DNA of 64,000 nt from Campylobacteraceae bacterium (GCA_016744535.1 JADGEE010000001.1:7284-71283), one strand, 5' to 3'. Counted from the first letter of the stretch, positions 146 to 51,887 are shown. Numbers and translations are program-made. Notes: generated by a model not told the origin, from the letters alone.

Positions 146-243
146 TATAAAATTTAATTAAGACTCTTTTTCCTTTAAAAAATTAGAATATAGAGTGCAA
201 GGAAGAAAATCAGAAATAGAAGAGAATCAATAAAAGGGTTTAA

Positions 244-1497
244 ATGAAAAAAGATACTATCTCTTGGGCAATGTATGATTTTGCAAATTCAGCTTTTGCT
301 ACAACTGTTATGGCTGGATTTTTCCCAATATTTTTTAAAGAGTATTACTCTTATGGAAGTGATGTTACAACTTCGACTGCACAACTAGGCTTCGCAAACT
401 CAATTGCAAGTCTATTAATAGTTCTATTCGCTCCTCTTTTAGGTGCAATAGCAGATTCACTCTCAAATAAGAAGAAGTTTCTATTCTTCTTTACATATTT
501 AGGAATTTTAATGACCGCCTCACTTAGTTTTGTGCAAAAAGGTGACTGGGAGATAGCAATATTTTTATATATGATGGGCAGTATCGGTTTTTCAGGTGCA
601 AACTCATTTTATGATTCATTAATGGTCTTTTTATCAGATGAAAAGAGAAGAGATTTTGTTTCAGGCTTAGGCTTTGGACTTGGATATTTAGGTGGTGGAA
701 TTCTGTTTAGCTTAAATATTTTTATGTATCAAAAACCTGAATTTTTTGGGATAGCTGATTCGGCTGAAGCTATTAAAATTTCATTTATAAGTGTAGCACT
801 TTGGTGGACAGTTTTTTCAATACCTATATTTTTATTTGTAAATGAGCCAAAAAAAGAGGAAAAAGGCTCTATATTAAAAGGATACAGAAACTTAATAAGT
901 ACTTTTAAAAAAATAAAGCATTTAAAAATGATTTTTACATTTTTAGTAGCTTATTGGTTCTATATTGATGGAGTTGATACGATTATTAGAATGGCGGTAG
1001 ATTATGGAATGTCAATCGGTTTTAATTCGAGTGATTTAATATTAGCTTTGCTTTTAATTCAATTTATCGGTTTTCCTGCGACTATTGTATTTGCGAAATT
1101 TGGTGAAAAATGGAACTCTAAAGTAGCAATTTTATTAGCAATTGGGGTCTATTTTATAATAACTTTATGGGCTTCATTTATGAGTAGCATAAGTGAATTT
1201 TATGCTATTGCTATTTTAATTGGGTTAGTCCAAGGTGGTATTCAAGCCCTAAGTCGTTCGTATTATTCTAAAATGATACCTAGTGAAAACTCGGCTGAAT
1301 TTTTTGGATTTTATAATATGATGGGAAAATTTGCAACAGTTTTAGGACCTATTTTAATTAGTTTAACTGCACTAATTACAAAAGATTCAAGAGTCTCAAT
1401 GGCATCAATTTTAATTCTGTTTTTAATAGGTGCTGTTTTACTTTTAAGAGTAGATGAAAAAATCGCAAAAGAGGAAGTTAAAGCTTTAGGGATTTAA
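244..1497 (+). CDS. MFS transporter, UMF1/Atg22-like family
   Basis: 417 aa with hydrophobic helices throughout. The N-terminal WAMYDFANSAF block and overall layout are typical of UMF1-type MFS permeases. Confidence 0.75.
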   Translation: MKKDTISWAMYDFANSAFATTVMAGFFPIFFKEYYSYGSDVTTSTAQLGFANSIASLLIVLFAPLLGAIADSLSNKKKFLFFFTYLGILMTASLSFVQKGDWEIAIFLYMMGSIGFSGANSFYDSLMVFLSDEKRRDFVSGLGFGLGYLGGGILFSLNIFMYQKPEFFGIADSAEAIKISFISVALWWTVFSIPIFLFVNEPKKEEKGSILKGYRNLISTFKKIKHLKMIFTFLVAYWFYIDGVDTIIRMAVDYGMSIGFNSSDLILALLLIQFIGFPATIVFAKFGEKWNSKVAILLAIGVYFIITLWASFMSSISEFYAIAILIGLVQGGIQALSRSYYSKMIPSENSAEFFGFYNMMGKFATVLGPILISLTALITKDSRVSMASILILFLIGAVLLLRVDEKIAKEEVKALGI

Positions 1498-1518
1498 TTA
1501 TCTTTTTCTTGTTTTCTT

Positions 1519-2466
1519 CTAGCGTATTATACTGTTTAATTCTATATATCTAAGATACGAATTATCTTTAATACTTTTTTCTATATCAACTTTTTGTGAT
1601 AACTGTTTATATAAATTTTTAGCTAAATCATAAAGCTCAACTAATTCACAAGCCCTTGCATAAGCATAAATTAGATACTCATCATAACTATTTTGTAGAT
1701 ATGCATTTTTATAGTACTCATAAGCTTGATAACTCCAGCCCTCTTTCTCTTTTGAAACTCCTAATATTAAATTTAAATATCCATTATAATCTTCATATAA
1801 AAATGGCTTTAAATTCTTTTCTAAATTTTTATCATTTGATTCAATTGCTCCAACTCCATAAGCATAAAGTAGAGATTGCCTATTATTTAAATTATATAGT
1901 TCTTTACTTACTCTTTGCCAACTTTTAGTTTTACCATACAAATAAAAAAGATTACTACTTATAAGTAAATTTTTAGGATTATATTTAAATAGTGATTCAT
2001 AACGCTTTATACTTTCAAAAAGTAAATTTGAATTTTTTAAATTATTAGCCTCTGCCATAACTCTTACATAATCATAATTATCTTTTATTTTATATATTTT
2101 TTTATTAATTTTATTTGATTTAAACTCTATTCTCTTATTTAGAGTATTTGAGTCTATTTTTACTATATAAGCACTCTTTATTAACTTTCTAACTCTTTTT
2201 AAATCTTTAGTTAAAATTTCTCTACTCTTACTTGCATTTCCATATCTAAGAGCGTAATATTTATTTAATTTATATATATTAGATTTTATTTTAATATCTT
2301 TTGGAAGTTTAAAATATAGATTTTTTGCATCATTTAAATTTAAAAAAGAGGCTAATTGAATCTCATAAAATTTTTCTATTTTAACTTTTTTAGAGATATT
2401 AAGCACAGCATCAACAGCATAAATATTAGATATGAAAAAAATAAAAATAAAAAAATTTATTTTCAT
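1519..2466 (-). CDS. secreted helical-repeat (TPR-like) protein, last gene of the secretin operon (MshN-like position)
   Basis: N-terminal signal-like segment MKINFFIFIFFISNIYA. Repetitive Y/L/N-rich helical pairs. Its start overlaps the secretin stop by 4 nt (2463-2466). Confidence 0.4.
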   Translation of the reverse strand: MKINFFIFIFFISNIYAVDAVLNISKKVKIEKFYEIQLASFLNLNDAKNLYFKLPKDIKIKSNIYKLNKYYALRYGNASKSREILTKDLKRVRKLIKSAYIVKIDSNTLNKRIEFKSNKINKKIYKIKDNYDYVRVMAEANNLKNSNLLFESIKRYESLFKYNPKNLLISSNLFYLYGKTKSWQRVSKELYNLNNRQSLLYAYGVGAIESNDKNLEKNLKPFLYEDYNGYLNLILGVSKEKEGWSYQAYEYYKNAYLQNSYDEYLIYAYARACELVELYDLAKNLYKQLSQKVDIEKSIKDNSYLRYIELNSIIR

Positions 2467-4061
2467 AATTGCTCAATTTTAATTCTTAAAACTATAACTA
2501 ATTCTCGCTTTTCAATACTACTTTCAACTCTTTTAAAAATAGCTCCAATAACAGGTAAATTTCCTAATAATGGAACTTGATGTTTATCATTTCTTTTAGT
2601 TGTATTTATAAGTCCACCAATTACAACCATATCATTATCTTTTGCTAAAATTACAGTTCCAGCCTCTTTTACATTAATAATAGGAGCTTTTGCAACATCT
2701 ACATTTCCATCTGAAAAAGTCTTTTCACCCTCTATATTTGTAATTACAGGAACTATGTTTAATAAAATTGTGCCATCTTTATTGATTTGTGGTGTAACTC
2801 CTAGTGAAATTCCATTTAAAACATCTCTTCTACTGTAAGTAATTTCAGGAACTAAATTTCTATTATTATCATTATTTTGGTCAAAAACTTCTGTATAAGT
2901 AACCTCTTTTTCCCAAAAAGGTACTATATTCCCACTTGAGATTAATCCAGTTTGTCCATTTAAAACTTTAATTCTAGGATTTGAGATAATTTCAACATTG
3001 CCTGAACTTTGCATTGCTTGAAGAACAGATTTAAAATTTCCCTTTGTATAAGCTAAAGTTACTGCTGATGCTGAATTTGAAATTGGACTTGACATACCCA
3101 AGCTATTAACTCCTTCAAGTTGTGCTAAACCGTTTAAATTTTGCATAATTTTTACTGATTGCTCAATACTATTCCAAGTCTGCTCCCAATTAACTCCCAA
3201 TTGATTACTATCATTTAAAATAACTTCCATTATTTTTGCTTCAATTAAAACTTGTTTACTTAAAAAATTATCTATATTTTTTAAAAAATCATCGACTCTT
3301 TTTATATTTTTTCTATTATCACTAACCATTAGAGTACCTGAAAATTTATTTAGAGAATATTTTCCACTTTCTGAAATTAAAGTTTTAATATTTTCATCTA
3401 TTTGAGTATAAAAATCGTTTAACTCTTGTGGGTTTTCGTAAGTTACGCTAAATGTACCACTAAGTCCACCGCCAGAGCCTCCACCGCCTCCACTTCCGCC
3501 AGAAGAACCACCACTGCTACCTCCAGTATCAGCATTGCCACCTAATAAATCTCCACCTAACTTTGAAGATGAATTTGTAGTTGTATGAATATATGGAAGC
3601 TTAAAAATTTTTGTCATAATATTTTTCACATAAAGAATATTTCCTTTTATCTCAAAAAATGCACCAGTTATATCCATTGCAATATCTAAAACCTCATTTA
3701 TTGGAGCATTTTTCATATTTAATGTAAGAGTCTTATTTAAATCAACACCTTCTGAAACTGCTAAATTAAGTCCAGCCTCTTGTGAAATTGTGTATAAAAA
3801 TTTTGTAATTGGTGCATTTACGGCTGAAAAAGTTATATTTTTACTACTATTTAAAATAGAAGGTTTTTTATAAACAGGAGGTAGAAGTAGAGGAGGAGGT
3901 TTTAATAGTTTTCTTTTTTCTCTCTCCCTTAACTCATTTTGAAACTTTTCAATAATACTTTTTTTATCTTTTTTAATCTCTTGCTGTGAAATTTTAGTGC
4001 TACATCCACTTATTAATAAAATTATAGATATAAAATATATTAATCTATTAATTTTAACCAT
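2463..4061 (-). CDS. outer-membrane secretin lipoprotein (MshL/PilQ/GspD family)
   Basis: Lipobox LLISGC. The C-terminal secretin block reads NPRIKVLNGQ...VIGGLI...VPLLGNLPVIGAIF. An internal Gly/Ser linker is present. Confidence 0.85.
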   Translation of the reverse strand: MVKINRLIYFISIILLISGCSTKISQQEIKKDKKSIIEKFQNELREREKRKLLKPPPLLLPPVYKKPSILNSSKNITFSAVNAPITKFLYTISQEAGLNLAVSEGVDLNKTLTLNMKNAPINEVLDIAMDITGAFFEIKGNILYVKNIMTKIFKLPYIHTTTNSSSKLGGDLLGGNADTGGSSGGSSGGSGGGGGSGGGLSGTFSVTYENPQELNDFYTQIDENIKTLISESGKYSLNKFSGTLMVSDNRKNIKRVDDFLKNIDNFLSKQVLIEAKIMEVILNDSNQLGVNWEQTWNSIEQSVKIMQNLNGLAQLEGVNSLGMSSPISNSASAVTLAYTKGNFKSVLQAMQSSGNVEIISNPRIKVLNGQTGLISSGNIVPFWEKEVTYTEVFDQNNDNNRNLVPEITYSRRDVLNGISLGVTPQINKDGTILLNIVPVITNIEGEKTFSDGNVDVAKAPIINVKEAGTVILAKDNDMVVIGGLINTTKRNDKHQVPLLGNLPVIGAIFKRVESSIEKRELVIVLRIKIEQL

Positions 4062-4669
4062 TTTTCTTCCTTTGTACTCTTTATTAAAACTCTATCTCTT
4101 AATATTTTTATAATTTTTGCATCTCTTATCTTATCGCCTATTTTTAAAATTTTATTATTAATAATAACTTTTGGTATTTTATTTGAAACTAAAATCATTT
4201 GCAACTTCAAAAATTTTAAACTTTGATTTAATTTTTTATTATCTTCAATTTTTTCACTCTCGAGTGATTTAAAAAATTTATTTTTATCTATTTTATTAGC
4301 ATTATTTAAGTTATTTAAAATCTCATCAGGATTTTTACTCTTAGCTAGTGCAATATATTGTGTAAATTTAATATTTTTACCATCTTTAATATCTTCTTTA
4401 TAAAGTCCATATTTTAGTAACCAAATGGTTGAGTGTCTATCCATATCCATTAAAGATTTTTGATATATATTTATCTTATCTCTATTTGAAGTTAAAGCAT
4501 TAAAGATTCTCTCTTTAGATATTTTAAAATTTTCTCTTTTAACTATTAAAATTTTTCTTAAATCACTCATAACTATATTTAAATCAAATAATATAGCCAA
4601 TATAATGGAGAGTGGAATTAAAATTATTAATGCTTGTTGTAGCGTTATATATATTTTAATTTTTTTCAC
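4040..4669 (-). CDS. bitopic pilus/secretion assembly protein, MshK/PilP-like
   Basis: Single N-terminal TM helix. The C-terminal VIINNKILKIGDKIRDAKIIKILRDRVLIK block resembles MshK/GspC/PilP-type domains. It overlaps the secretin start by 22 nt. Confidence 0.4.
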   Translation of the reverse strand: MKKIKIYITLQQALIILIPLSIILAILFDLNIVMSDLRKILIVKRENFKISKERIFNALTSNRDKINIYQKSLMDMDRHSTIWLLKYGLYKEDIKDGKNIKFTQYIALAKSKNPDEILNNLNNANKIDKNKFFKSLESEKIEDNKKLNQSLKFLKLQMILVSNKIPKVIINNKILKIGDKIRDAKIIKILRDRVLIKSTKEEKWLKLID

Positions 4670-4677
4670 TCTTATTC

Positions 4678-5139
4678 CTATCTATACAACTGAATGATTT
4701 CTATATCTATTTCTACTATGTTTTCTTTTATATTTAAAGATTTTATATTTAAAAACCCAAACTCTTTTTTTAAGCTAGATAGAGTAAAAAGAGCATTTAA
4801 ATCATCTCTCTTAAGAAGTGAATTAACTCTTATATAAAAATAATTTTTTCTCTTAGTAATAAATTCATCAATAGATAAATTCAATATATTCTTATAACTT
4901 TTATAAAATTTAATTAACTTATCTTCTGCATCTTTTTCAAGAGGAATTGAATTTAATATAGGAAATATTTCATCTTTTAGTATTTGATTAACTTTTGAAA
5001 ATTTTTTTATTTTATTTAAGCTTTTTTTGACTCTTTTAATTTCACTCTCATAGCTTTTTATCCCATAATTTAAATTTTTGTCTAAAAGAAGTATAGCTAT
5101 AACAAATATTGATAAAATTATGGATATAACTATTTTCAT
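4678..5139 (-). CDS. bitopic assembly protein, MshJ/PilO-like
   Basis: 153 aa with an N-terminal TM helix followed by a coiled-coil. It lies between the PilM/N-like and PilP-like genes and shares a 4-nt overlap with the upstream gene. Confidence 0.35.
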   Translation of the reverse strand: MKIVISIILSIFVIAILLLDKNLNYGIKSYESEIKRVKKSLNKIKKFSKVNQILKDEIFPILNSIPLEKDAEDKLIKFYKSYKNILNLSIDEFITKRKNYFYIRVNSLLKRDDLNALFTLSSLKKEFGFLNIKSLNIKENIVEIDIEIIQLYR

Positions 5140-6479
5140 TTAAATCTTCCATTGAGAGTAAAAGATGCTTTTATACTCAACTCTTTATAATCGTGTGTCA
5201 TATCAACTCTTATTTTTTTACCCATATCTAAAGTAACTTTTTTAAAATCTTTTAAAAATTTATTTAAATCTATTAAATCTTCAAACTTTTTTTCAAACTC
5301 TAAACTCAAAATATTATCTTTTTCACTCCATTTAAAATTCTCAAATTCAATCTCTAGAGTATTTATCTTTTGACTTATTAAATTTATACTATTTAATAAA
5401 TTAGTATTTGAATTATTTTTTATTAATTTTAAAAAGTTAGAGATAAATCGCTCATCTTTAGGACTACCTATATTTATTTTTGAAAAGTCTCGTAATAATT
5501 TACTTTTTAAATTTGAGTAATTATCTTCTAAGTCAAAATATCTATTAGCTTTATTAAATATTTCATAACCTACTAGTGTTGATAAAAGTACTAAAGCAAA
5601 TATATAAATATTTAAAAGTTGTAAAAACTGCTGTTTTGACTTAAATTTAATAGGAATAAAATTTAAATCATCATCAATTAAAAGTGAACCAAATTCAATT
5701 AAATATCTATTAAAACTTTCAAAGTCAATATTTTTAAATATTAATTTTGGCATTAATTTTAAAACTTCTACTTTAGAGTTGTTCTCAATAATAGTTAAAA
5801 GTTCAATATTATCCGTAAATTCTCCATTAATAGTTACTAAATCAAAGTTTACTCTTAATTGCTGTTTTATATATAGAATATTTTTTATAGCTTCATCTTT
5901 TAGTGTTTCAAAATCAAGTGTTTTCTCTTTTAAATTTATAACTCTCGAGAATAGTATACTTTCAAAATTTCCAGCTATTATAATTATCTCATTTAAATTC
6001 GAATACAAAGAGATAAAACTCTTATCTTTAAAGAAATATCTATTAATCGAATATAACGCATAAATATCTAAAGTAACACACTTTATACTTTTTGGAGTTG
6101 CAATAGAGTAAAAATCTTTATAATCACTCTCATAGACTCCAATTATCTCATAACGAGTTGAGTTTTTAGTTGTTTCATTTTCATAATAGTTATAAATTAT
6201 TTTATTTTTATCTAAATGAAACTCTTTTTTTAACTTCGCATCAATCATAAATTTTATAGTAGAATCACTTTTAATTACTTTTGGAATATCAATATTAGTT
6301 TTAATTGTTTTTGTACCAAATAGACTAAAATATAAATTTCGTCTATTTTTTATATATTTTTTTACCTCATTTAATTCCTCAAATGATACTTCTGCTTTTA
6401 TTGATAATTTCTTGAGACTTTTTGAAATTTTTAAAACATTAAATTTTCCATCTCTTAATCTAATTAAATTTACAATCAT
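5136..6479 (-). CDS. MshI-like assembly protein (PilM-like cytoplasmic part + TM + PilN-like part)
   Basis: 447 aa with one internal TM helix (LLNIYIFALVLLSTLVGYEIF) about two thirds along. It is the first gene of the operon upstream of the secretin. Confidence 0.4.
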   Translation of the reverse strand: MIVNLIRLRDGKFNVLKISKSLKKLSIKAEVSFEELNEVKKYIKNRRNLYFSLFGTKTIKTNIDIPKVIKSDSTIKFMIDAKLKKEFHLDKNKIIYNYYENETTKNSTRYEIIGVYESDYKDFYSIATPKSIKCVTLDIYALYSINRYFFKDKSFISLYSNLNEIIIIAGNFESILFSRVINLKEKTLDFETLKDEAIKNILYIKQQLRVNFDLVTINGEFTDNIELLTIIENNSKVEVLKLMPKLIFKNIDFESFNRYLIEFGSLLIDDDLNFIPIKFKSKQQFLQLLNIYIFALVLLSTLVGYEIFNKANRYFDLEDNYSNLKSKLLRDFSKINIGSPKDERFISNFLKLIKNNSNTNLLNSINLISQKINTLEIEFENFKWSEKDNILSLEFEKKFEDLIDLNKFLKDFKKVTLDMGKKIRVDMTHDYKELSIKASFTLNGRFK

Positions 6480-36957: not shown

Positions 36958-37038
36958 AATCTTTATTTGAATTTTATGCAAATAAAGATAAGATTTGCTA
37001 AAAAGTCTTACGAAAGAGAGCCTATTTAAAGGATAGTT

Positions 37039-41454: not shown

Positions 41455-42720
41455 ATGAATCAAGAAACTATTGGAATCCACTATGGATACGAAAAAGATA
41501 ATCAAAAAACAATGGCAGTACCAATTTATCAAAGTACAGCTTATGACTTTGGAAGTGCTGATTTTGCAGCTAGTAGTTTTAATTTAGAACAAGGTACTGA
41601 TAATGTTTATACTCGTGTGGGAAATCCTACAACAGCAGTATTAGAGAGAAGATTTGCAGAGTATGAGGGTGGAAGTGCAGCGTTAGCCGTTGCTAGTGGA
41701 ATGAGTGCAATTTTTTATAGTATCATCAATGTAGCAGATGCTGGAGATAATATTATTAGTACAAGTCAGCTTTATGGTGGAACTGTTACGCTATTTAGAC
41801 ACACTTTAAAGAGACTAGGAATTGAAGTTAGATTTTTTGATAAATTAAATCCTGAAAGTATAGATGATTTGGTTGATGAGAATACTAAAGCGATATTTTT
41901 TGAATCAATTGCAAACCCTAGTATTGATGTGCCTGATTTTGAAAAAATTGCAGAAATTGCAAATAGACATAAAATTATTACAATAGTTGATAATACAGTG
42001 GCAACTCCAGTTTTATGTAAGCCTTTTGATTTTGGAATTGATGTTTCAATTCATAGTGCTAGTAAATACGCAACTGGTCAAGGCTTAGCAATTGGTGGAT
42101 TAATTGTTGAGAGAAAAAATTTAGTAGAAAAAATCAAAGATAATCCTAGATACCCACACTTTAATACTCCTGAAGTTAGTTATCACGGATTAATTTTTGC
42201 AAATCCTCCAGTAAATGGAATATTATTTACTTTTAGAGTTAGAATGATTCTTTTAAGAGATACAGGTGCAGTTTTAAGTCCATTTAATTCGTGGTTATTT
42301 ATTCAAGGGCTTGAAACTCTTTCACTTAGAATGGCTAAACATTCAAGCAATGCGTTAGCTATAGCTAAATATTTAGAATCTCATCCAAAAGTTAAAACAG
42401 TTAATTACGCATTTTTAGAGAGTAGTAAAAATTATAAGAGAGCTAATAAGTATCTAAAAGCTGGAAGTGGATTAGTTAGTTTTGAAGTTGATAGTTTTGA
42501 TGAGGCTAAAAAGGTTCTTGATAGTGTTAAAATTTTCTCAATTGTTGCAAATATCGGAGATTCAAAATCTACTATTAATCACTCTGCCTCAACTACGCAT
42601 CAACAATTAAGTGCTGATGAGAGGAGTGCTTGTGGTGTTAAAGATGGTCTTATTAGACTTAGTGTTGGAATTGAAAACGAAGAGGATTTGATTAACGATT
42701 TAAAAAAGGCTTTAGCTTAA
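41455..42720 (+). CDS. metY: O-acetylhomoserine sulfhydrylase / aminocarboxypropyltransferase (PLP)
   Basis: Cys/Met-metabolism PLP family. YTRVGNPT, VDNTVATP, SASKY (PLP lysine), RLSVGIE. Confidence 0.9.
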   Translation: MNQETIGIHYGYEKDNQKTMAVPIYQSTAYDFGSADFAASSFNLEQGTDNVYTRVGNPTTAVLERRFAEYEGGSAALAVASGMSAIFYSIINVADAGDNIISTSQLYGGTVTLFRHTLKRLGIEVRFFDKLNPESIDDLVDENTKAIFFESIANPSIDVPDFEKIAEIANRHKIITIVDNTVATPVLCKPFDFGIDVSIHSASKYATGQGLAIGGLIVERKNLVEKIKDNPRYPHFNTPEVSYHGLIFANPPVNGILFTFRVRMILLRDTGAVLSPFNSWLFIQGLETLSLRMAKHSSNALAIAKYLESHPKVKTVNYAFLESSKNYKRANKYLKAGSGLVSFEVDSFDEAKKVLDSVKIFSIVANIGDSKSTINHSASTTHQQLSADERSACGVKDGLIRLSVGIENEEDLINDLKKALA

Positions 42721-42869
42721 TTGTCTTCTTTTTCACTCTTCATATTTTTATCATCTTTTAATTCCGTCAATATACTGACTTGTTCCTCTGTTATATCGCC
42801 AACTAACTTTGCTATTATAAATTCTAAATCACATATAGAATCACCATTTATTTCAATATCTTGACACAT
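42717..42869 (-). CDS. 50-aa acidic hypothetical protein (MCQDIEINGDSICDLEFIIAKLVGDITEEQVSILTELKDDKNMKSEKEDN)
   Basis: ATG preceded by an AAGGA SD 7 nt upstream. Its stop overlaps the metY stop. It is below the ORF-track cutoff. Confidence 0.3.
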   Translation of the reverse strand: MCQDIEINGDSICDLEFIIAKLVGDITEEQVSILTELKDDKNMKSEKEDN

Positions 42870-42998
42870 ATATAATCCTTTTTTATATAATTAATTTTAA
42901 AATAATACTAAATTACAACTGTTATTTTATTAACTAAATAAATATAAAAATTAACTATAAATTATAAATTATAAAAATTTAAGTTTAAAGTGAAATTT

Positions 42999-43007
42999 TG
43001 TTATAAT
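42999..43007 (+). promoter_or_regulatory. extended -10 box TGTTATAAT upstream of the AMMECR1 gene
   Basis: Exact TGnTATAAT 21 nt upstream of the ATG at 43028. Confidence 0.35.
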
Positions 43008-43027
43008 TCAAATAAAAAAGGCTAAAT

Positions 43028-43600
43028 ATGGAAAAATTAAAAGATATACTTTTAAAAATTGCAAGAGATTCAATAAATGAAGTTTTAACCAATAAAAAAT
43101 TAGTTGATAAAGAAAAACTTTTAAAAAAATACCCAGAACTTGGTGAAGATAGAGCAGTTTTTGTAACAATAACTGAAGATAAAAGCTTAAGAGGCTGTAT
43201 CGGCTCAATCGTACCTAGAAGAACTCTACTTGAAGATTTAATTGAAAATGCAAAATCAGCTGCTTTTGCTGATCCTAGATTTAATGCACTATTAAAAGAT
43301 GAATTTAACAAAATTCAAATTGAAGTTTCTATTTTAACTATTCCAGAAGAAATTGAATATAATGATATGAAAGAGTTAGAGAATAAAGTTAGACCTAATA
43401 TTGACGGTGTAATTGTAAAACTACACGATAAACAAGCTACATTTTTACCACAAGTTTGGGAACAACTTTTTGACTTTGAGACATTTTTAGCAAAACTGTA
43501 TTTAAAAGCTGGAATTACAACACACTATTTAGTTTCAACAGAAGACCAACCTGAAATTTATACTTATCAAGTAGAAAAATTTGAAGAGGAGTGCTTATAA
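43028..43600 (+). CDS. AMMECR1-domain protein (AmmeMemoRadiSam system protein A-like)
   Basis: LRGCIGS signature and DPRF. A 190-aa single domain. Confidence 0.85.
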   Translation: MEKLKDILLKIARDSINEVLTNKKLVDKEKLLKKYPELGEDRAVFVTITEDKSLRGCIGSIVPRRTLLEDLIENAKSAAFADPRFNALLKDEFNKIQIEVSILTIPEEIEYNDMKELENKVRPNIDGVIVKLHDKQATFLPQVWEQLFDFETFLAKLYLKAGITTHYLVSTEDQPEIYTYQVEKFEEECL

Positions 43601-45504: not shown

Positions 45505-45936
45505 ATGAGTGAATTTGATTTTGAAAAAGCATTTGATAACTGTAATATAGATGAGCAACAACAGTGTGACACTCCAGCTGAAGACGAAGAGGCACAGACA
45601 TTTGCTAATTTAATTAAAACTAAACTATTAAATCCAAATTTTAGTGGAGTTAATTTTTCACGATGGGATGTTAAGAGAATCGCTTATGAATTTGGAGAAA
45701 AAATCCCAACTGATGAGAGAAAAAAGATGATAGCACAACTACTGAAATATGTAGATTCTGAAGAGACTTTAAATAAATTATTTAATATTATCAAAAAATT
45801 TATTGATGAGAGAGTTGGAATCTATAATGAATTATCTCAAACTTTTCCAGCTTCAAAACCTATTTTTGATGGTTATATCGTAAAAACCAATGATGCAAAA
45901 AAACTACTTGATGATATAGCGAAGGGTAATTATTGA
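45505..45936 (+). CDS. 143-aa hypothetical protein with acidic N-terminus
   Basis: AAGGAAA SD. 4-nt overlap with the ymdB-like gene. No motif recognised. Confidence 0.55.
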   Translation: MSEFDFEKAFDNCNIDEQQQCDTPAEDEEAQTFANLIKTKLLNPNFSGVNFSRWDVKRIAYEFGEKIPTDERKKMIAQLLKYVDSEETLNKLFNIIKKFIDERVGIYNELSQTFPASKPIFDGYIVKTNDAKKLLDDIAKGNY

Positions 45937-46745
45937 TAATTGCTTTTATAGGCGATATTGTTGGACGACCTGGTAGGAAAATTGTAAAACAGCACTTAAA
46001 TTCTATAAGAGATGAGTTTAATATAGATTTTGTAATTGCAAATAGTGAAAATGCAAGTCACGGCTTTGGTTTAACTATGAAAAATTCAAAAGAGCTTTTT
46101 AACTCTGGAATAGATTTAATGACTGGAGGAAATCATACTTGGGATAAAAAAGATATTTTAGCTTTGCTTGAAATAGAACCAATACTTCGACCTCATAATT
46201 ATCCTAGTGGAGTTCACGGCACAGGAGTTTTTAAAACAGAGATAAATGGAGAAAAATTAGCAATTTTAAATTTAATGGGTGTCTATACGATGCCTATGGT
46301 TACAAATCCATTTATTTGTGCTAAAGATGAAGTTGTAAAACTTAGAGAAGATGGCTATAAAAATATTTTCATAGATTTTCACGCAGAAGCTACAAGTGAG
46401 AAAAGAGGATTACAGCAGATGTTAAAGGGTCAAGTTAGTGCAATTTGTGGAACTCATACACACATTGGAACAGATGATTTAAGCATACAAGATGATACAC
46501 TTTATGTAACAGATGTAGGTTTAACAGGATGCCGTGATAATGTAATCGGAATGGAAAGCACAGCCCCAATTAAAAAATTTTTAACGGGACTTCCTGCAAA
46601 ATATGATATTCCAAACAGTTGTAAATCTATTTTACAACTTATTGTAATTGAGTTAAATGATGGAAAAGCAGTTGATGGATTTAAGATAAAAGTTTATGAT
46701 GAGGGTAAACCTCAAGTAGTTCAAAAAGCTTTTAGAGAGAATTAA
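45933..46745 (+). CDS. ymdB: YmdB-family metallophosphoesterase (2',3'-cyclic-nucleotide phosphodiesterase-like)
   Basis: IAFIGDIVGRPGR...NSENASHGFG...GNHTWD...DFHAEATSEK...GTHTH. Confidence 0.9.
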   Translation: MIIAFIGDIVGRPGRKIVKQHLNSIRDEFNIDFVIANSENASHGFGLTMKNSKELFNSGIDLMTGGNHTWDKKDILALLEIEPILRPHNYPSGVHGTGVFKTEINGEKLAILNLMGVYTMPMVTNPFICAKDEVVKLREDGYKNIFIDFHAEATSEKRGLQQMLKGQVSAICGTHTHIGTDDLSIQDDTLYVTDVGLTGCRDNVIGMESTAPIKKFLTGLPAKYDIPNSCKSILQLIVIELNDGKAVDGFKIKVYDEGKPQVVQKAFREN

Positions 46746-46940
46746 ATGAGTGAAACTCTAAAAGAGGTAGGGAAAAGTCTATTAGCATTAGCAAATTTAC
46801 TTATGGTTGTTTTATTCTTTAAACATCATCAAGAGACTAATGATATTTTATATTTTTATAAAGGTATTAGTTACGGAGTAGGTTTATATATAATAGGTGG
46901 TCTTTTAATATTGCTTGGTAAAGATTTGGAGGATATGTAA
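46746..46940 (+). CDS. 64-aa two-helix membrane protein
   Basis: Its ATG directly abuts the ymdB stop. Two hydrophobic helices. Confidence 0.5.
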   Translation: MSETLKEVGKSLLALANLLMVVLFFKHHQETNDILYFYKGISYGVGLYIIGGLLILLGKDLEDM

Positions 46941-47044
46941 TGGAATCTTTTTTTGAAATAGGAATAGTAGTAAATACAGTTATTGCAATTATTTTATTTA
47001 TAATTCACTTAAAAATAAAAAATAAGAAGAGGAATTTACATTGA
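46940..47044 (+). CDS. 34-aa single-TM peptide (MESFFEIGIVVNTVIAIILFIIHLKIKNKKRNLH)
   Basis: TAATG overlap with the previous ORF and a 4-nt overlap with the bioB TTG start. Below the ORF-track cutoff. Confidence 0.3.
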   Translation: MESFFEIGIVVNTVIAIILFIIHLKIKNKKRNLH

Positions 47045-47883
47045 AAAAAAAGATATTTTTATGTGCAATTAGTAATATTTCGAGTGGAACTTGTAAAGAG
47101 TATTGTAAATTTTGTACTCAAAGCACAAAGCATAAAACTAATATAGATAGATATTATCAAAAGCCAATAGATGAAATTATAAAAGAGGCAAAATTAGCAA
47201 AACAAAATGGAGCAATCGGATTTTGTTTAGTAACTGCTGGAAAAGGTCTTGATGATAAAAAACTTGAATTTGTTTGTAAAAGTGCAAAAGCTGTTCGTGA
47301 TGAGGTTGGAGAGGATTTTAATTTAATCGCTTGTAATGGAACTGCTACTATTGAGCAAATCAAAGAGTTAAAAAAAGCCTCTATTAATAGTTATAATCAT
47401 AATTTAGAGACTTCAAAAGAGTATTACAATCAAATTTGCACAACTCATTCGTGGGAAGAAAGATTTCAAACTTGTTTAAATATTAAAGAAGTTGGACTTC
47501 ATTTATGTAGTGGTGGAATTTATGGAATGGGTGAATCACAAGCTGATAGAGTTAGTTTAATTAAATCTCTAAAAGAGTTAAAAGTTGATTCAACTCCTGT
47601 AAATTTTTATCACCCAAATGAAGCATTACCAATTAAAGCAAATAATATTAGTATAGATAAAGCTTTTGAAATTATAGAGTATGTAAAAAGTGAATTAAAT
47701 GAAGCTATGATAATGGTTGCTGGTGGGAGAGAATTTATGTTTAAAGATAGACAGAGTGAAATTTTTGATTATGGAATTACTTCTATTGTGATAGGTGATT
47801 ATTTAACTACAAAAGGCGAAAGTATCAAGAGAGATAAAGATATGCTAGATAGTTTAAATTTAGAGATAGCTACGAGTTGTTAA
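47041..47883 (+). CDS. bioB: biotin synthase (radical SAM)
   Basis: CKEYCKFC (CxxxCxxC) and YNHNLETS. Collinear with BioB. TTG start. Confidence 0.9.
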   Translation: MKKKIFLCAISNISSGTCKEYCKFCTQSTKHKTNIDRYYQKPIDEIIKEAKLAKQNGAIGFCLVTAGKGLDDKKLEFVCKSAKAVRDEVGEDFNLIACNGTATIEQIKELKKASINSYNHNLETSKEYYNQICTTHSWEERFQTCLNIKEVGLHLCSGGIYGMGESQADRVSLIKSLKELKVDSTPVNFYHPNEALPIKANNISIDKAFEIIEYVKSELNEAMIMVAGGREFMFKDRQSEIFDYGITSIVIGDYLTTKGESIKRDKDMLDSLNLEIATSC

Positions 47884-47893
47884 GAGATTTAAA

Positions 47894-48013
47894 ATGTTAA
47901 AAATAGATGAACTTAAAAATTTTGGAGTAATTGAGAGTATAGAAGAGCCAATAGAGTTAAAAGATTTAACTATTTTTATGGGTGATAATTCATCAGGTAG
48001 GAGTTATTTATAA
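47894..48013 (+). pseudogene. 39-codon N-terminal remnant of a P-loop (AAA/OLD/ABC-like) ATPase
   Basis: MLKIDELKNFGVIESIEEPIELKDLTIFMGDNSSGRSYL then a stop. This matches the usual I..L.I.NF..I......L..LTV..G.N.SGKS start of such ATPases, but has GRS instead of GKS and ends right after the Walker A. Confidence 0.4.
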
Positions 48014-48055
48014 AAGGTAAAATTCAGAATTTGAAATGTTTTTTTATTAGAAAAA

Positions 48056-48826
48056 CTAACTAGCTAAGACCCTATTAATTTTATTAATATAGCATTTTAA
48101 AATTTGATCTTTATCATTATTAGATATATTATTTAATTCTTTAGTTCTACAATCTAATCCAATTGTATTAAAAGAATATTTTTTAATTAAATCAACACCT
48201 TTTTTAGCTAAATCTAAAGAGGCTCTTTGTAGATGAGATGTTGATTTTTTTACGCCATCTTCTATACAATTTTTATCAGATAAAAATAAATGACTCATTG
48301 AATGATAAAACTCTTGATATGAACTAAATAATATTACCATATATTCATTATATAATTTTTTATCAACAGGTTTTTTATGATTTATTAACTTTTTAATTAA
48401 ATCTTGAATTAAAATATCCATAGAAATAAATAATTCAAAATTGCTATTCCAATTATTTTCTATTCCTTTATCTACTTTTAAAATAGAAGCTTTAATAGAT
48501 GGGATTATTAATTTATTATCCATTTCTTTGATAAGATTTTCAAGCAAGTTTTCAGTTTTTTTAAAAATACTCTTATCATTAATACTACTAAGGTTTATTT
48601 TATTTTCTATTTCAATTATATATAAACTAGATATTTTATTTATTGTATTAATTATTTTCGAGTTAGTAGCAACATTACCACGAGTAATATAAAGTTCTTT
48701 GTATAAATTATAATATATCCCAAAAAACTGTAAGTCAGGAGCAATTAAGTAAGATTTATAATTACTTAAAATAATTAGGCATTTATTATAATGCCTAATT
48801 TGAAAGGTCTTTAAATAATTTAGCAT
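48056..48826 (-). CDS. 256-aa hypothetical helical protein (downstream gene of a two-gene module)
   Basis: Start and stop overlap with the 76-aa gene at 48826. No motif I can assign. The C-terminal TSHLQRASLDLAKKG block is noted. Confidence 0.5.
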   Translation of the reverse strand: MLNYLKTFQIRHYNKCLIILSNYKSYLIAPDLQFFGIYYNLYKELYITRGNVATNSKIINTINKISSLYIIEIENKINLSSINDKSIFKKTENLLENLIKEMDNKLIIPSIKASILKVDKGIENNWNSNFELFISMDILIQDLIKKLINHKKPVDKKLYNEYMVILFSSYQEFYHSMSHLFLSDKNCIEDGVKKSTSHLQRASLDLAKKGVDLIKKYSFNTIGLDCRTKELNNISNNDKDQILKCYINKINRVLAS

Positions 48827-49056
48827 TAATACCCTAAATTATCAGCTAATTTTTGCAATTCAGAAGAATTATTCATAGCAAATACATTCCCTCTGCCTAT
48901 AACATTACCTTCGAATATCTGAAACTCACTGATTTTACAACTATCAGTAACTATTCTAAAGTCTTCTTCTTTATGAATATTTTTCAAAGCCTTTAGAACT
49001 TCTGCTCTAGCTTCTTTCCCTTGAACTTTTTGTTCTATAAAGTCACTATTTTTCAT
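48826..49056 (-). CDS. 76-aa hypothetical protein (upstream gene of the two-gene module)
   Basis: It is preceded by paired inverted-repeat boxes at 49116-49150. Confidence 0.5.
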   Translation of the reverse strand: MKNSDFIEQKVQGKEARAEVLKALKNIHKEEDFRIVTDSCKISEFQIFEGNVIGRGNVFAMNNSSELQKLADNLGY

Positions 49057-49115
49057 TTACCTACACACCTAAAATTTTAGTATTACCAAAAATAATATTC
49101 TAAATTTACTTAATA

Positions 49116-49150
49116 AATACTTAATTAGTATTTTAATACTTATTAGGTAT
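49116..49150. promoter_or_regulatory. two adjacent imperfect palindromes, AATACTTAATTAGTATT and AATACTTATTAGGTAT (candidate operator)
   Basis: Located at 49116-49132 and 49135-49150, 60-95 nt upstream of the 76-aa gene start on the minus strand. Confidence 0.35.
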
Positions 49151-49269
49151 ACATAAAGTATTCCAAAAATAAATAATAATATTAAAGATTTTAATTTTGA
49201 AAAAATCGAATTTAGCAAAACTATAAGTATTTAAAATATATAATAAAAAAAATTAAAGAGTAAAAATAT

Positions 49270-49962
49270 ATGTTTAATTGCAAAAAATTAGAAATATTTC
49301 ATAAAGACAATAAATTAGTAGATATAAATTTTAAAATTAAAGAGTCTTTAGCTTTAGTTGGAGAGAGTGGAAGTGGTAAAAGTTTAACACTAAAGAGTAT
49401 TTTAGGGCTTTTACCAAATAGCTTTAAATATAACTTTGATTATGATAATAGTTTTGAGTTAAAGAGAGGTGAGACTATCACATTTGTGCCTCAAAATCCA
49501 TTTACATCTCTTTCTCCTTTAACGAAGATAAGAAAACAATTTTTGATGGAAAAAAGTATTGCAAAAAAAAATTTAGAGTTAGTTGGCTTAAAATTAGAGT
49601 TTTTAGATAGGTTTCCATCTGAGCTTAGTGGGGGACAACTTCAAAGAGTAATAATTGCTATGAGTTTAACTCCAAATGTGAAACTTATGTTACTTGATGA
49701 GCCAACAACTGCACTAGATATTGATAGTAAAACTATGATACTTAATTTACTCAAAACTTTACAAAAAAAATTTAAATTTAAAATTTTATTCGTAACTCAC
49801 GATATAGATAGTGTTAAAAGTTTATGTGAAGATATAGCTGTATTAAATAATGGAATTATAGTTGAAAGTGGAAATTTGAATAAAATTTTAGAAAATCCAC
49901 AAAATGAATATACAAAAAAACTGATTGAAGCAAATTTTAAAAACAGGGGTTTTAGAGAGTGA
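49270..49962 (+). CDS. ABC transporter ATP-binding protein (Dpp/Opp-type), no permease adjacent
   Basis: Walker A GESGSGKS. Signature LSGGQLQR. Walker B LLDEPT. Confidence 0.85.
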   Translation: MFNCKKLEIFHKDNKLVDINFKIKESLALVGESGSGKSLTLKSILGLLPNSFKYNFDYDNSFELKRGETITFVPQNPFTSLSPLTKIRKQFLMEKSIAKKNLELVGLKLEFLDRFPSELSGGQLQRVIIAMSLTPNVKLMLLDEPTTALDIDSKTMILNLLKTLQKKFKFKILFVTHDIDSVKSLCEDIAVLNNGIIVESGNLNKILENPQNEYTKKLIEANFKNRGFRE

Positions 49963-51887
49963 AAATTTTATTTACTATATTTTTTTTATCTATTATAGGA
50001 GTTTCAGGCGTACTTTTATATTTTTATAATGAAGTTAGGTTTGAGGCTGAAAAGTTAATTCATTATACACCACCACTCACAACTCAAATTTTAGATAAAA
50101 ATGGAAAATTAATTTCAAATCTATTTGAAAATGAGAACAGATTATATGCTAAATTTGATGAGATTCCCTCACGTGTAATTGAAGCTCTTTTAGCGATTGA
50201 AGATACTATGTTTTTTGAGCATTATGGAGTTAATTTTGATGCTATTCTAAGGGCTATAATTAAAGATGTAAAAGCTGGAAAATTAGTTGAGGGAGCTAGT
50301 ACACTAACTCAACAGTTAATTAAAACAACACTTTTAACTAGAGAAAAAAAAATTTCAAGAAAAATAAAAGAGTTAATTTTAGCTATAAGTGTTGAGAGTT
50401 CATTAACTAAAGAGGATATTTTAGAGAGATATTTAAATCAAATATATTTTGGTCACGGTTATTATGGAATCAAAACTGCATCTAATGGTTATTTTCATAA
50501 AGAGTTAAATGAACTAACTTTAAAAGAGATGTGTTTATTAGTTGGACTTCCAAAAGCTCCAAGTTTTTATGACCCAACTAAAAATTTAGATTTTTCATTA
50601 AGTAGGGCTAATAGAGTCTTATTTAGAATGCACCATTTAGGTTGGATAAATGATGATGAGTTTAACAAATCTCTAAAAGAATCACCTATGATTTATGATG
50701 AGACATTAACAAGAAATAGTGCTCCTTATGTTGTAAATGAAGTTATCAAAAAATTGATAAAAAATTATCCAGATTTAAAGAGCGGTGGATATAGAGTTTA
50801 TACAACTATTGATTTAAATTTGCAATATAGTGCAAGAGAAGCATTAAAATTTAGTTATGATGCTATTAAAGAGAGAGATAAAAAAAATAAATATTCAAAA
50901 CAATTAAATGGAGCATTAGTTGCATTAGAAAATTCAACTGGAAATGTTTTAGCTTTAGTTGGTGGAGTTGATTATAAAAAAAGTAATTTTAATCGTGCCA
51001 CCCAAAGTAATAGGCAACCTGGAAGTAGTTTTAAGCCATTTATTTATCAAAGTGCCTTAGATTTAGGTTACTCTCCAATTTCAGCAATTGCAGATATTTC
51101 AAGAACTTATAAATTTAAAACAGATGATAATAAGGAAAAAATTTGGCAACCTAAAAACTATGAAAAAGATTTTAAAGGTTTAATTACTTTAAGAGAAGCG
51201 ATGGTTCACTCACGAAACTTAGCTACAATTAACTTAGTTGAAGCAATAGGACTTAGTAACTTATATGATAAATTAACTAAAGATTATGAGTTTGAAAATA
51301 TTCCATCAAATTTATCAATTTCACTTGGAAGTTTTGGAATATCTCCACTAAAACTTGCAGAAGCTTATACAGCTTTTTCAAATTATGGTACAAAAAAAGA
51401 AGCTAAATTAATTGAAGCAATAGAAAATAGATATACTCAAAGAAAAGAGTTTAGTACTACTTCAAAAAAAATAACAGATCCAAAACAAGCCTTTTTGATG
51501 GTTTCAATTTTAAAAGATGTAGTTAAAAGTGGAACTGGAAGAAATGCAAAAGTAAAGGGGCTTGAGATTGCAGGAAAAACAGGAACTAGTAATAATAATG
51601 TAGATGCTTGGTTTTGTGGTTTTTCTCCAAGTATTGAGTGTATTGTTTGGTTTGGAAATGATGATAATACTCCAATGAAAAAATTTGAGACAGGAGGTCG
51701 AGCTGCCGCCCCTGCTGTTGGATACTTCTTTAAAAAATTAGTAGAGACTTATCCTCAAATTAAGAGAAAGTTTGATATACCTAAAGGTGTAATAACTTCA
51801 AAAGTAGGAGGCAAAGATGAGTATTTTACTGAAACTTCAAAACCACCTACTACAAAAATTGAAGAAACAGATGAGCTTATTTTTTAA
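49959..51887 (+). CDS. mrcA: bifunctional penicillin-binding protein 1A (glycosyltransferase GT51 + transpeptidase)
   Basis: EDTMFFEHYGV and GASTLTQQ (GT51). SSFKP (SxxK), SRN and KTGT (transpeptidase). GTG start overlapping the ABC gene stop. Confidence 0.95.
   Translation: MKILFTIFFLSIIGVSGVLLYFYNEVRFEAEKLIHYTPPLTTQILDKNGKLISNLFENENRLYAKFDEIPSRVIEALLAIEDTMFFEHYGVNFDAILRAIIKDVKAGKLVEGASTLTQQLIKTTLLTREKKISRKIKELILAISVESSLTKEDILERYLNQIYFGHGYYGIKTASNGYFHKELNELTLKEMCLLVGLPKAPSFYDPTKNLDFSLSRANRVLFRMHHLGWINDDEFNKSLKESPMIYDETLTRNSAPYVVNEVIKKLIKNYPDLKSGGYRVYTTIDLNLQYSAREALKFSYDAIKERDKKNKYSKQLNGALVALENSTGNVLALVGGVDYKKSNFNRATQSNRQPGSSFKPFIYQSALDLGYSPISAIADISRTYKFKTDDNKEKIWQPKNYEKDFKGLITLREAMVHSRNLATINLVEAIGLSNLYDKLTKDYEFENIPSNLSISLGSFGISPLKLAEAYTAFSNYGTKKEAKLIEAIENRYTQRKEFSTTSKKITDPKQAFLMVSILKDVVKSGTGRNAKVKGLEIAGKTGTSNNNVDAWFCGFSPSIECIVWFGNDDNTPMKKFETGGRAAAPAVGYFFKKLVETYPQIKRKFDIPKGVITSKVGGKDEYFTETSKPPTTKIEETDELIF

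Follow-up and report, generated by a model that had tools for sequence, protein, structure and literature searches.

We analyzed a stretch of 64,000 nucleotides (nt) from a Campylobacteraceae bacterium (GCA_016744535.1, JADGEE010000001.1:7284-71283; hereafter 'the window', meaning this whole stretch of DNA), concentrating on the interval between bioB and an ABC ATPase gene (positions 47,884 to 49,269). This interval holds a 39-codon open reading frame (ORF), the stump of an ATPase gene, which is separated from the end of bioB by 10 nt, and, convergent with the stump and 43 nt from it, a pair of genes encoding proteins of 76 and 256 amino acids (aa), here called the small and the large protein (Table 1). 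The window is a dense chromosome of ∼26% GC, and the closest relatives of its bioB are found in Campylobacterota metagenome-assembled genomes.

An initial annotation, made from the sequence alone, described the interval as a decayed mini-island and considered its gene pair typical of toxin-antitoxin (TA) or abortive-infection loci. The coordinates and sequence strings that it gave (the ORFs, the one-base overlap between the two genes, the positions of two palindromes) are all correct. Decay, however, characterizes only the stump, which is a truncated remnant, and not the gene pair, which is intact and has relatives under purifying selection. The interval between bioB and the ABC ATPase gene is best explained as two unrelated pieces of accessory DNA, a dead ATPase fragment and an intact two-gene operon.

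Table 1. Features of the bioB-ABC ATPase interval and its flanks (positions in the window)
Feature	Position	Strand	Remarks
bioB	47041-47883	+	Radical_SAM and BATS
ATPase stump (39-aa ORF)	47894-48013	+	translation ends in LTIFMGDNSSGRSYL, then stop
Large gene (256-aa ORF)	48056-48826	-	intact
Hairpin within the large ORF	48773-48800	-	codons 9-18; perfect 11-bp inverted repeat with 6-nt loop (AATTAGGCATT ATAATA AATGCCTAATT), then ATTTT
Small gene (76-aa ORF)	48826-49056	-	intact
AT-rich divergent spacer between the gene pair and the ABC ATPase gene	49057-49269		213 nt
ATACT/AGTAT half-site array	49116-49161		60-105 nt upstream of the small gene ATG; includes both palindromes
ABC ATPase gene (230 aa)	49270-49962	+	ABC_tran and a weak oligo_HPY tail
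Large ORF, PBP1-like (642 aa)	49959-51887	+	named from reading the translation only

Results

A conserved gene pair from a very rare family

The stop codon of the small gene and the start codon of the large gene share a single base at 48826 (TAATG), an overlap through which the two genes are predicted to be translationally coupled. For the large protein, an exhaustive HMMER scan of 1.84 billion representative proteins detected five distant relatives (28-40% identity, E 5e-18 to 3e-5); P0008 was recovered by a profile search and the homolog in locus L023 by a metagenome scan, giving seven in total. The family is very patchy, with 6 proteins at E ≤ 1e-3 among all representatives scanned. In a word-indexed search of 5.8 billion proteins, the large and small protein queries each recovered only themselves.

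The proposal that the pair constitutes a small-then-large operon is borne out by these relatives: order and tight spacing are kept in 8/8 loci, in each of which the large gene is immediately preceded, on the same strand, by a gene of 67-97 aa, at spacings ranging from -35 (overlap) to +51 nt. The small proteins share the motif F[ED]G-x-V-[IL]-GRGNV-[YF] in seven of the eight loci, including the window (where it reads FEGNVIGRGNVFAM), the copy in locus L019 being degenerate; every aligned sequence keeps residues G50, G54-R55-G56-N57-V58 and S64. Comparison of the two closest loci, L017 and L023, gives dN/dS values of 0.19 (large gene) and 0.48 (small gene), indicating that both genes are protein-coding and under constraint.

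Neither the large nor the small protein matches any Pfam, NCBIfam or PADLOC model (PADLOC-DB v2.0.0, E ≤ 1), in agreement with the earlier statement that they contain no assignable motif; a structure-based search with the large protein was equally unproductive (see below). The seven large-protein members have no Pfam, NCBIfam, PADLOC or PHROGs family consistently in common, the small proteins have no match in Pfam, NCBIfam, PADLOC, PHROGs or the PDB, PDB sequence-profile searches with either protein yielded chance-level matches only, and the motifs brought up no papers in a literature search. PADLOC likewise has no model matching the two proteins of the L023 pair. A match of the window's large protein to phrog_21987 (E 1.3e-4) was rejected and is treated as compositional, since no other family member reproduces it. 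Judged by these searches, the gene pair belongs to a family that is very rare, has not been described before and is present in none of the catalogs searched.

Predicted structure and invariant residues of the large protein

Two alignments of the large family (A1 and A2) agree on a set of invariant residues: E172, H179, H198, R201, D205, K208 and Y246. The sharpest motifs are YQEFYHSMSHLFL and STSHLQRASLDLAKK, which can be written YQEFYH-x2-SH and SHLQR-x2-LD-x2-K. The initial annotation had described the large protein as helical with a C-terminal TSHLQRASLDLAKKG block; this block is where the family is most strongly conserved, and the model obtained with AlphaFold2 (AF2) from the 7-sequence alignment A2 is all-alpha, comprising nine helices (predicted local distance difference test (pLDDT) 84.1, predicted template-modeling score (pTM) 0.83). 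Modeling from the single sequence gave a useless result (pLDDT 36).

Three of the predicted helices are long (residues 120-149, 156-182 and 185-218). E172 and H179 are placed on the second of these, H198, R201, D205 and K208 on one face of the third, and Y246 on the last helix of the protein. Foldseek searches with the AF2 model gave no credible fold match (best E 0.6 in the PDB and 0.95 in BFVD, TM ∼0.3 or less); the helical model is both confident and novel.

An obvious comparison is with HEPN toxins, all-alpha RNases known from TA, Abi and CRISPR-associated systems, which share with the large protein an all-alpha bundle, a conserved His and Arg on a helix, and a conflict-system context. In contrast to these toxins, however, the large protein displays the conserved order H-x2-R-x3-D-x2-K; the HEPN Rx4-6H motif, as read from sequence, is absent from P0001 and from the invariant columns of the family, and neither Pfam (HEPN clan) nor Foldseek returned a match.

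Genomic contexts of the gene pair

Homologous pairs occur in strikingly different surroundings, in hosts ranging from 26% to 49% GC. In locus L023, a complete set of Menshen genes, NsnA, NsnB and NsnC (E 7.6e-115, 5.1e-82 and 4.8e-34, respectively; positions 217-3259), is followed by a GT28-like glycosyltransferase gene (3490-4536) and then by the pair, which lies ∼1.5 kb downstream of Menshen. In sulfidic-cave metagenomes, the pair is flanked by a HicB-like gene and a PemK/MazF-like gene, an arrangement seen in three samples (L012-L014); in L012, the HicB-like gene (207-673, E 9.4e-5) is upstream and is itself preceded by a 78-aa ORF, while the PemK/MazF-like gene (2502-2908) lies downstream on the other strand. 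In L016, an IS3-family (rve) transposase gene (1079-2155, minus strand) overlaps the 3' end of the large gene (431-1096), whose 221-aa product (P0003) has an aberrant C-terminus, losing the C-terminal helix of the family after KKGVD; this large gene has probably been disrupted by the insertion sequence (IS). The remaining two contexts are solo inserts of ∼1.2 kb each in housekeeping surroundings, between dnaK and a rotamase gene in the Campylobacterota-like L018, and between a racemase gene and cytochrome bd oxidase genes in L019 (GCA_002452405.1, 49% GC).

Wherever enough flanking sequence was present for comparison (three chromosomal contexts), the GC content of the module is lower than that of its flanks: 0.223 versus 0.258 in the window, 0.253 versus 0.311 in L018, and 0.340 versus 0.494 in L019. 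By its distribution and composition, the gene pair is a horizontally acquired, mobile cassette. The conservation of the pair, its Menshen, HicB-MazF and IS3 neighbors, and a GC content below that of the host together form the pattern of mobile TA or defense cargo.

Convincing terminal repeats around the module were found only in L023, where a 20-nt inverted repeat, TGAGTTTTGAGTTAATCGGT / ACCGATTAACTCAAAACTTA (19/20 matching; ∼4550-4720 and ∼5740-5870), flanks it. Runs of AAGTTTTGAG-type heptamer repeats also lie on both sides of the L023 module; all these repeats may represent either cassette ends or a genome-wide family of short repeats.

The initial annotation recognized that conservation of the interval among relatives, with matches to housekeeping families, would undermine its interpretation. 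That these are lineage-conserved housekeeping genes is highly implausible, and is contradicted by the data: no support was found; a search of the 90%-identity protein collection returned only the window's own proteins; the bioB neighborhoods of the ten nearest genomes have no homolog of either protein; and the family is scattered across unrelated contexts. The nearest genome, with a bioB 80% identical to that of the window, has thiG after bioB, and the genes flanking the module in the window were found at none of the ten bioB loci retrieved.

Alternatively, the pair might be a relic of a degraded prophage or other mobile element, inert, drifting to loss and serving no present function. Its low GC content, the adjacent pseudogene stump, the truncation of the L016 large gene by an IS and the weak phrog_21987 match are all consistent with such an origin. 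Both ORFs are nevertheless intact in the window, where 256 codons at 22% GC cannot persist by chance (∼0.9^256), and the relatives are under purifying selection. Moreover, no relatives of either protein are present among 2.9 million viral contigs (IMG/VR), tblastn searches found none in plasmids and only a chance-level match (E 7) in GenBank phages, and the phrog_21987 match is confined to the window's protein. We therefore regard an inert remnant as very unlikely.

The upstream spacer and a hairpin within the large ORF

The spacer upstream of the small gene holds the presumed promoter and ribosome-binding site of the module (AGGTGTGTAGGTAA before the ATG). The initial annotation had noted two operator-like palindromes here, AATACTTAATTAGTATT at 49116-49132 and AATACTTATTAGGTAT at 49135-49150. 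Both are present, but their quality is at chance level in dinucleotide shuffles of this AT-rich sequence: the best arm is 7 nt (7.35 ± 1.35 in shuffles), and 4 palindromes have arms of 6 nt or longer (versus 3.4). What does stand out is a cluster of ATACT/AGTAT half-sites, with 6 copies in 213 nt versus 1.4 ± 1.1 in shuffles (∼1 in 1000 shuffles, for a motif chosen post hoc), starting at 49117, 49127, 49136, 49146 (GGTAT) and 49157, at a spacing of 9-11 bp and in mostly alternating orientation. Positions 49101-49175 form the sole stretch of the window with at least 4 such copies in 60 nt.

A candidate -10 box, TAGAAT, is located at 49102-49097 on the minus strand, and the proximal palindrome would cover the corresponding -35 position; because a promoter scan performed at chance level (15 found versus 13.4 expected), we only infer this promoter placement. 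The half-site array is a candidate operator overlapping the -35 region. Comparison of upstream regions across loci revealed no shared operator word, the number of common 9-mers being at chance level (60 versus 51 ± 11). One 13-mer, TTTGGAATACTTT (in gene orientation), is common to the upstream regions of the window (49155-49167) and L012 (∼1058-1070), and contains an ATACT half-site in both.

The large ORF itself contains a hairpin that begins 26 nt past its ATG. This is the sole terminator-like site in 47800-49400 (0.2 expected) and, among 40-nt folds of the module, the most stable; the window has only two perfect stems of 11 bp or more, this one and another at 36959-36989, and the hairpin is not a dispersed repeat. 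Speculatively, it could serve as an attenuator inside the operon, reducing the output of the large gene relative to that of the small one. Neither Rfam nor tandem-repeat scans returned anything in the interval, and there is accordingly nothing to suggest a TA RNA of type I or type III.

The ATPase stump

OLD-ABC-type ATPases are used by Menshen, Gabija, PARIS, Septu and similar systems. The 39-aa ORF downstream of bioB was originally recognized as the truncated remnant of a defense-type P-loop ATPase, with Arg replacing the P-loop Lys, and both points hold. It aligns with profile positions 7-39 of Pfam AAA_15 (E 1.3e-3, short of the 32.1-bit cut-off) and, in PADLOC, with the N-termini of 26 ATPase models, the best of which is Menshen NsnB (E 2.5e-5), followed by PD-T4-4_A, AriA, HEC-01A and GajA; the PADLOC comparison, which the initial annotation had suggested, returned nothing for the gene pair. 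The aligned region comprises an N-terminal beta-hairpin and a degenerate Walker A (GDNSSGRS, with Arg where GxxxxGK[ST] has Lys), and shares 48% identity with residues 13-43 of the complete L023 NsnB; a stop codon follows two codons past the P-loop, and nothing further of the gene survives. By sequence, the stump is a deletion remnant (pseudogene), apparently of an AAA_15/OLD-ABC-type defense ATPase. Its parent system cannot be named, because only 39 residues are left and other AAA_15 defense ATPases score nearly as well.

Menshen is a defined three-gene system, consisting of the ParB/DUF262 protein NsnA, the ATPase NsnB (AAA_15/OLD-ABC plus DUF3696) and the inPIN nuclease NsnC (PMC12065111). 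Unlike NsnB, the stump has no Walker B, signature motif or DUF3696, nor does it retain the Q-loop or H-loop that complete the core of an ABC ATPase; and in contrast to the Menshen operon, the window contains no similarity to NsnA or NsnC. No other remnant of NsnA, NsnB or NsnC was detected elsewhere in the 64 kb (tblastn with all three proteins), and with the L023 NsnB no further ATPase similarity appeared in any frame.

The proximity of an NsnB-like ATPase to the pair in two loci, the complete NsnABC of L023 and the stump in the window, raises the question of whether the pair belongs, as an accessory, to an ATPase system of the OLD-ABC/NsnB type and was left in the window as a non-functional orphan upon destruction of the ATPase. 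We consider this very unlikely. No AAA_15 or AAA_21 gene occurs within 10 kb to either side of the solo inserts L018 and L019, in L023 a glycosyltransferase gene stands between Menshen and the pair, Menshen as defined has no such components (PMC12065111), and the stump in the window is convergent with the pair rather than co-oriented, while the pair itself is intact.

Neighboring genes and an independent assembly

An independent SRA assembly (L001, SRR11072026) contains a stump and module identical to those of the window. The bioB of this assembly differs from window 47041-47883 by one residue (99.6% identity), reflecting either a second strain or an assembly difference. Between bioB and a 270-aa ORF (45933-46745) lie two small hydrophobic ORFs of 64 and 34 aa (46746-47044), the second of which overlaps the start of bioB by 4 nt; both were also called in L001.

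On the other side of the interval, the ABC ATPase gene has no adjacent permease gene and overlaps the start of the 642-aa ORF by 4 nt; an exact look-up of its protein returned no record. From reading its translation only, the 642-aa ORF resembles a class A penicillin-binding protein, an unusual partner for an ABC ATPase. The lowest GC content in the region surveyed (0.188) is found at 42800-43199, between the ORFs at 41455-42720 and 43028-43600.

Discussion

We propose that the gene pair is a type II TA-like or abortive-infection-like module in which the helical protein is the effector and the GRGNV protein its neutralizer, and perhaps also a regulator. We assign this reading a rough probability of 0.45. 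The conserved gene order, the neighbors and the low GC content speak for the TA or abortive-infection interpretation of the initial annotation; the failure to find any known toxin, antitoxin or defense domain speaks against it.

In the mechanism envisaged, the large protein would be the effector, and the conserved polar patch on its long C-terminal helices would form an active or binding site. The small protein, a putative neutralizing partner or regulator, would bind the large protein via its GRGNV motif and hold it inactive. The operon would be transcribed from the spacer at 49057-49269, perhaps under autoregulation at the ATACT/AGTAT array, and the hairpin early in the large ORF would keep the small product in excess. 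We infer toxicity, neutralization, the binding interface, the operator and attenuation alike from these features.

Comparison with type II TA operons such as HicAB and MazEF, relatives of which neighbor the pair in L012, reveals extensive similarities in organization. Both are bicistronic, the small gene preceding the large one with an overlap or a short gap (adjacent, co-oriented and conserved in all eight loci of the family, with an overlap of 1 nt in the window), and both have a promoter region of their own with repeated half-sites, stand-alone mobility, a patchy distribution, a GC content below that of the host, and a tendency to cluster with TA, defense and IS genes. In contrast to the established systems, neither protein of the pair belongs to a known toxin or antitoxin superfamily, the seven large-protein members having no consistent library match and the AF2 model no Foldseek match. 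Whereas most type II antitoxins carry an N-terminal DNA-binding domain, Pfam, NCBIfam and PDB-profile searches found no ribbon-helix-helix, helix-turn-helix, AbrB or Phd/YefM fold in the small proteins, and their conserved part is the C-proximal GRGNV loop; the large protein, all-alpha and ∼250 aa long, has no structural analog in the PDB or BFVD.

Several observations weigh against an effector-neutralizer module. Neither protein matches any known toxin, antitoxin or defense hidden Markov model (HMM), and the large protein has neither the HEPN-type Rx4-6H motif nor a structural analog. The small protein combines a variable N-terminus with a conserved C-proximal motif, the opposite of most type II antitoxins; as it has no recognizable DNA-binding domain, the putative operator has no identified binder. 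The operator itself is built on a motif that was chosen after it had been seen and is not common to other loci, conservation of the hairpin at the same place in homologs is marginal (Fisher p 0.049, post hoc), and guilt by association draws on only about six independent contexts.

Some of these observations would sit comfortably with a non-toxic accessory module, in which a helical enzyme or regulator binds or modifies the GRGNV partner and plays no role in addiction or defense, as in a partner-switching or anti-factor pair, or in a modifying protein together with its small substrate or precursor peptide. The short invariant motif in an otherwise variable small protein looks like a place where the protein is recognized or modified, the invariant helix-borne E/H/H/R/D/K residues might form a metal or catalytic site, and library scans found no toxin or antitoxin domains. 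This alternative is nonetheless rather unlikely: in L018 and L019 the pair stands alone, with no transporter, protease or target genes, and the very patchy cross-lineage distribution, the low GC content and the TA, defense or IS neighbors are a better fit to selfish or defense cargo.

If the pair is a TA or defense module, as we favor, it would enlarge the catalog of conflict systems by an effector fold and a small-partner motif, both of them new. A somewhat more tentative extension of this reading is that the pair represents a new TA or abortive-infection family, whose effector fold and active site would be unlike those of any characterized toxin, and whose ∼1.1-kb cassette would move between phyla into defense and TA islands. 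E172, H179, H198, R201, D205, K208 and Y246 of the large protein, and G54-V58 of the small protein, are targets for mutagenesis. The word-indexed searches and curated HMM libraries that we tried did not identify the family of the pair; if our interpretation is true, exhaustive profile searches can recover very rare families, in this case ∼eight sequence clusters in billions of proteins.

The stump, in turn, represents ordinary genome decay, and is useful mainly as a marker of the repeated arrival of accessory DNA at this intergenic site. The architecture of the gene pair is of a known kind, that of a bicistronic, mobile conflict module, here assembled from unknown parts.

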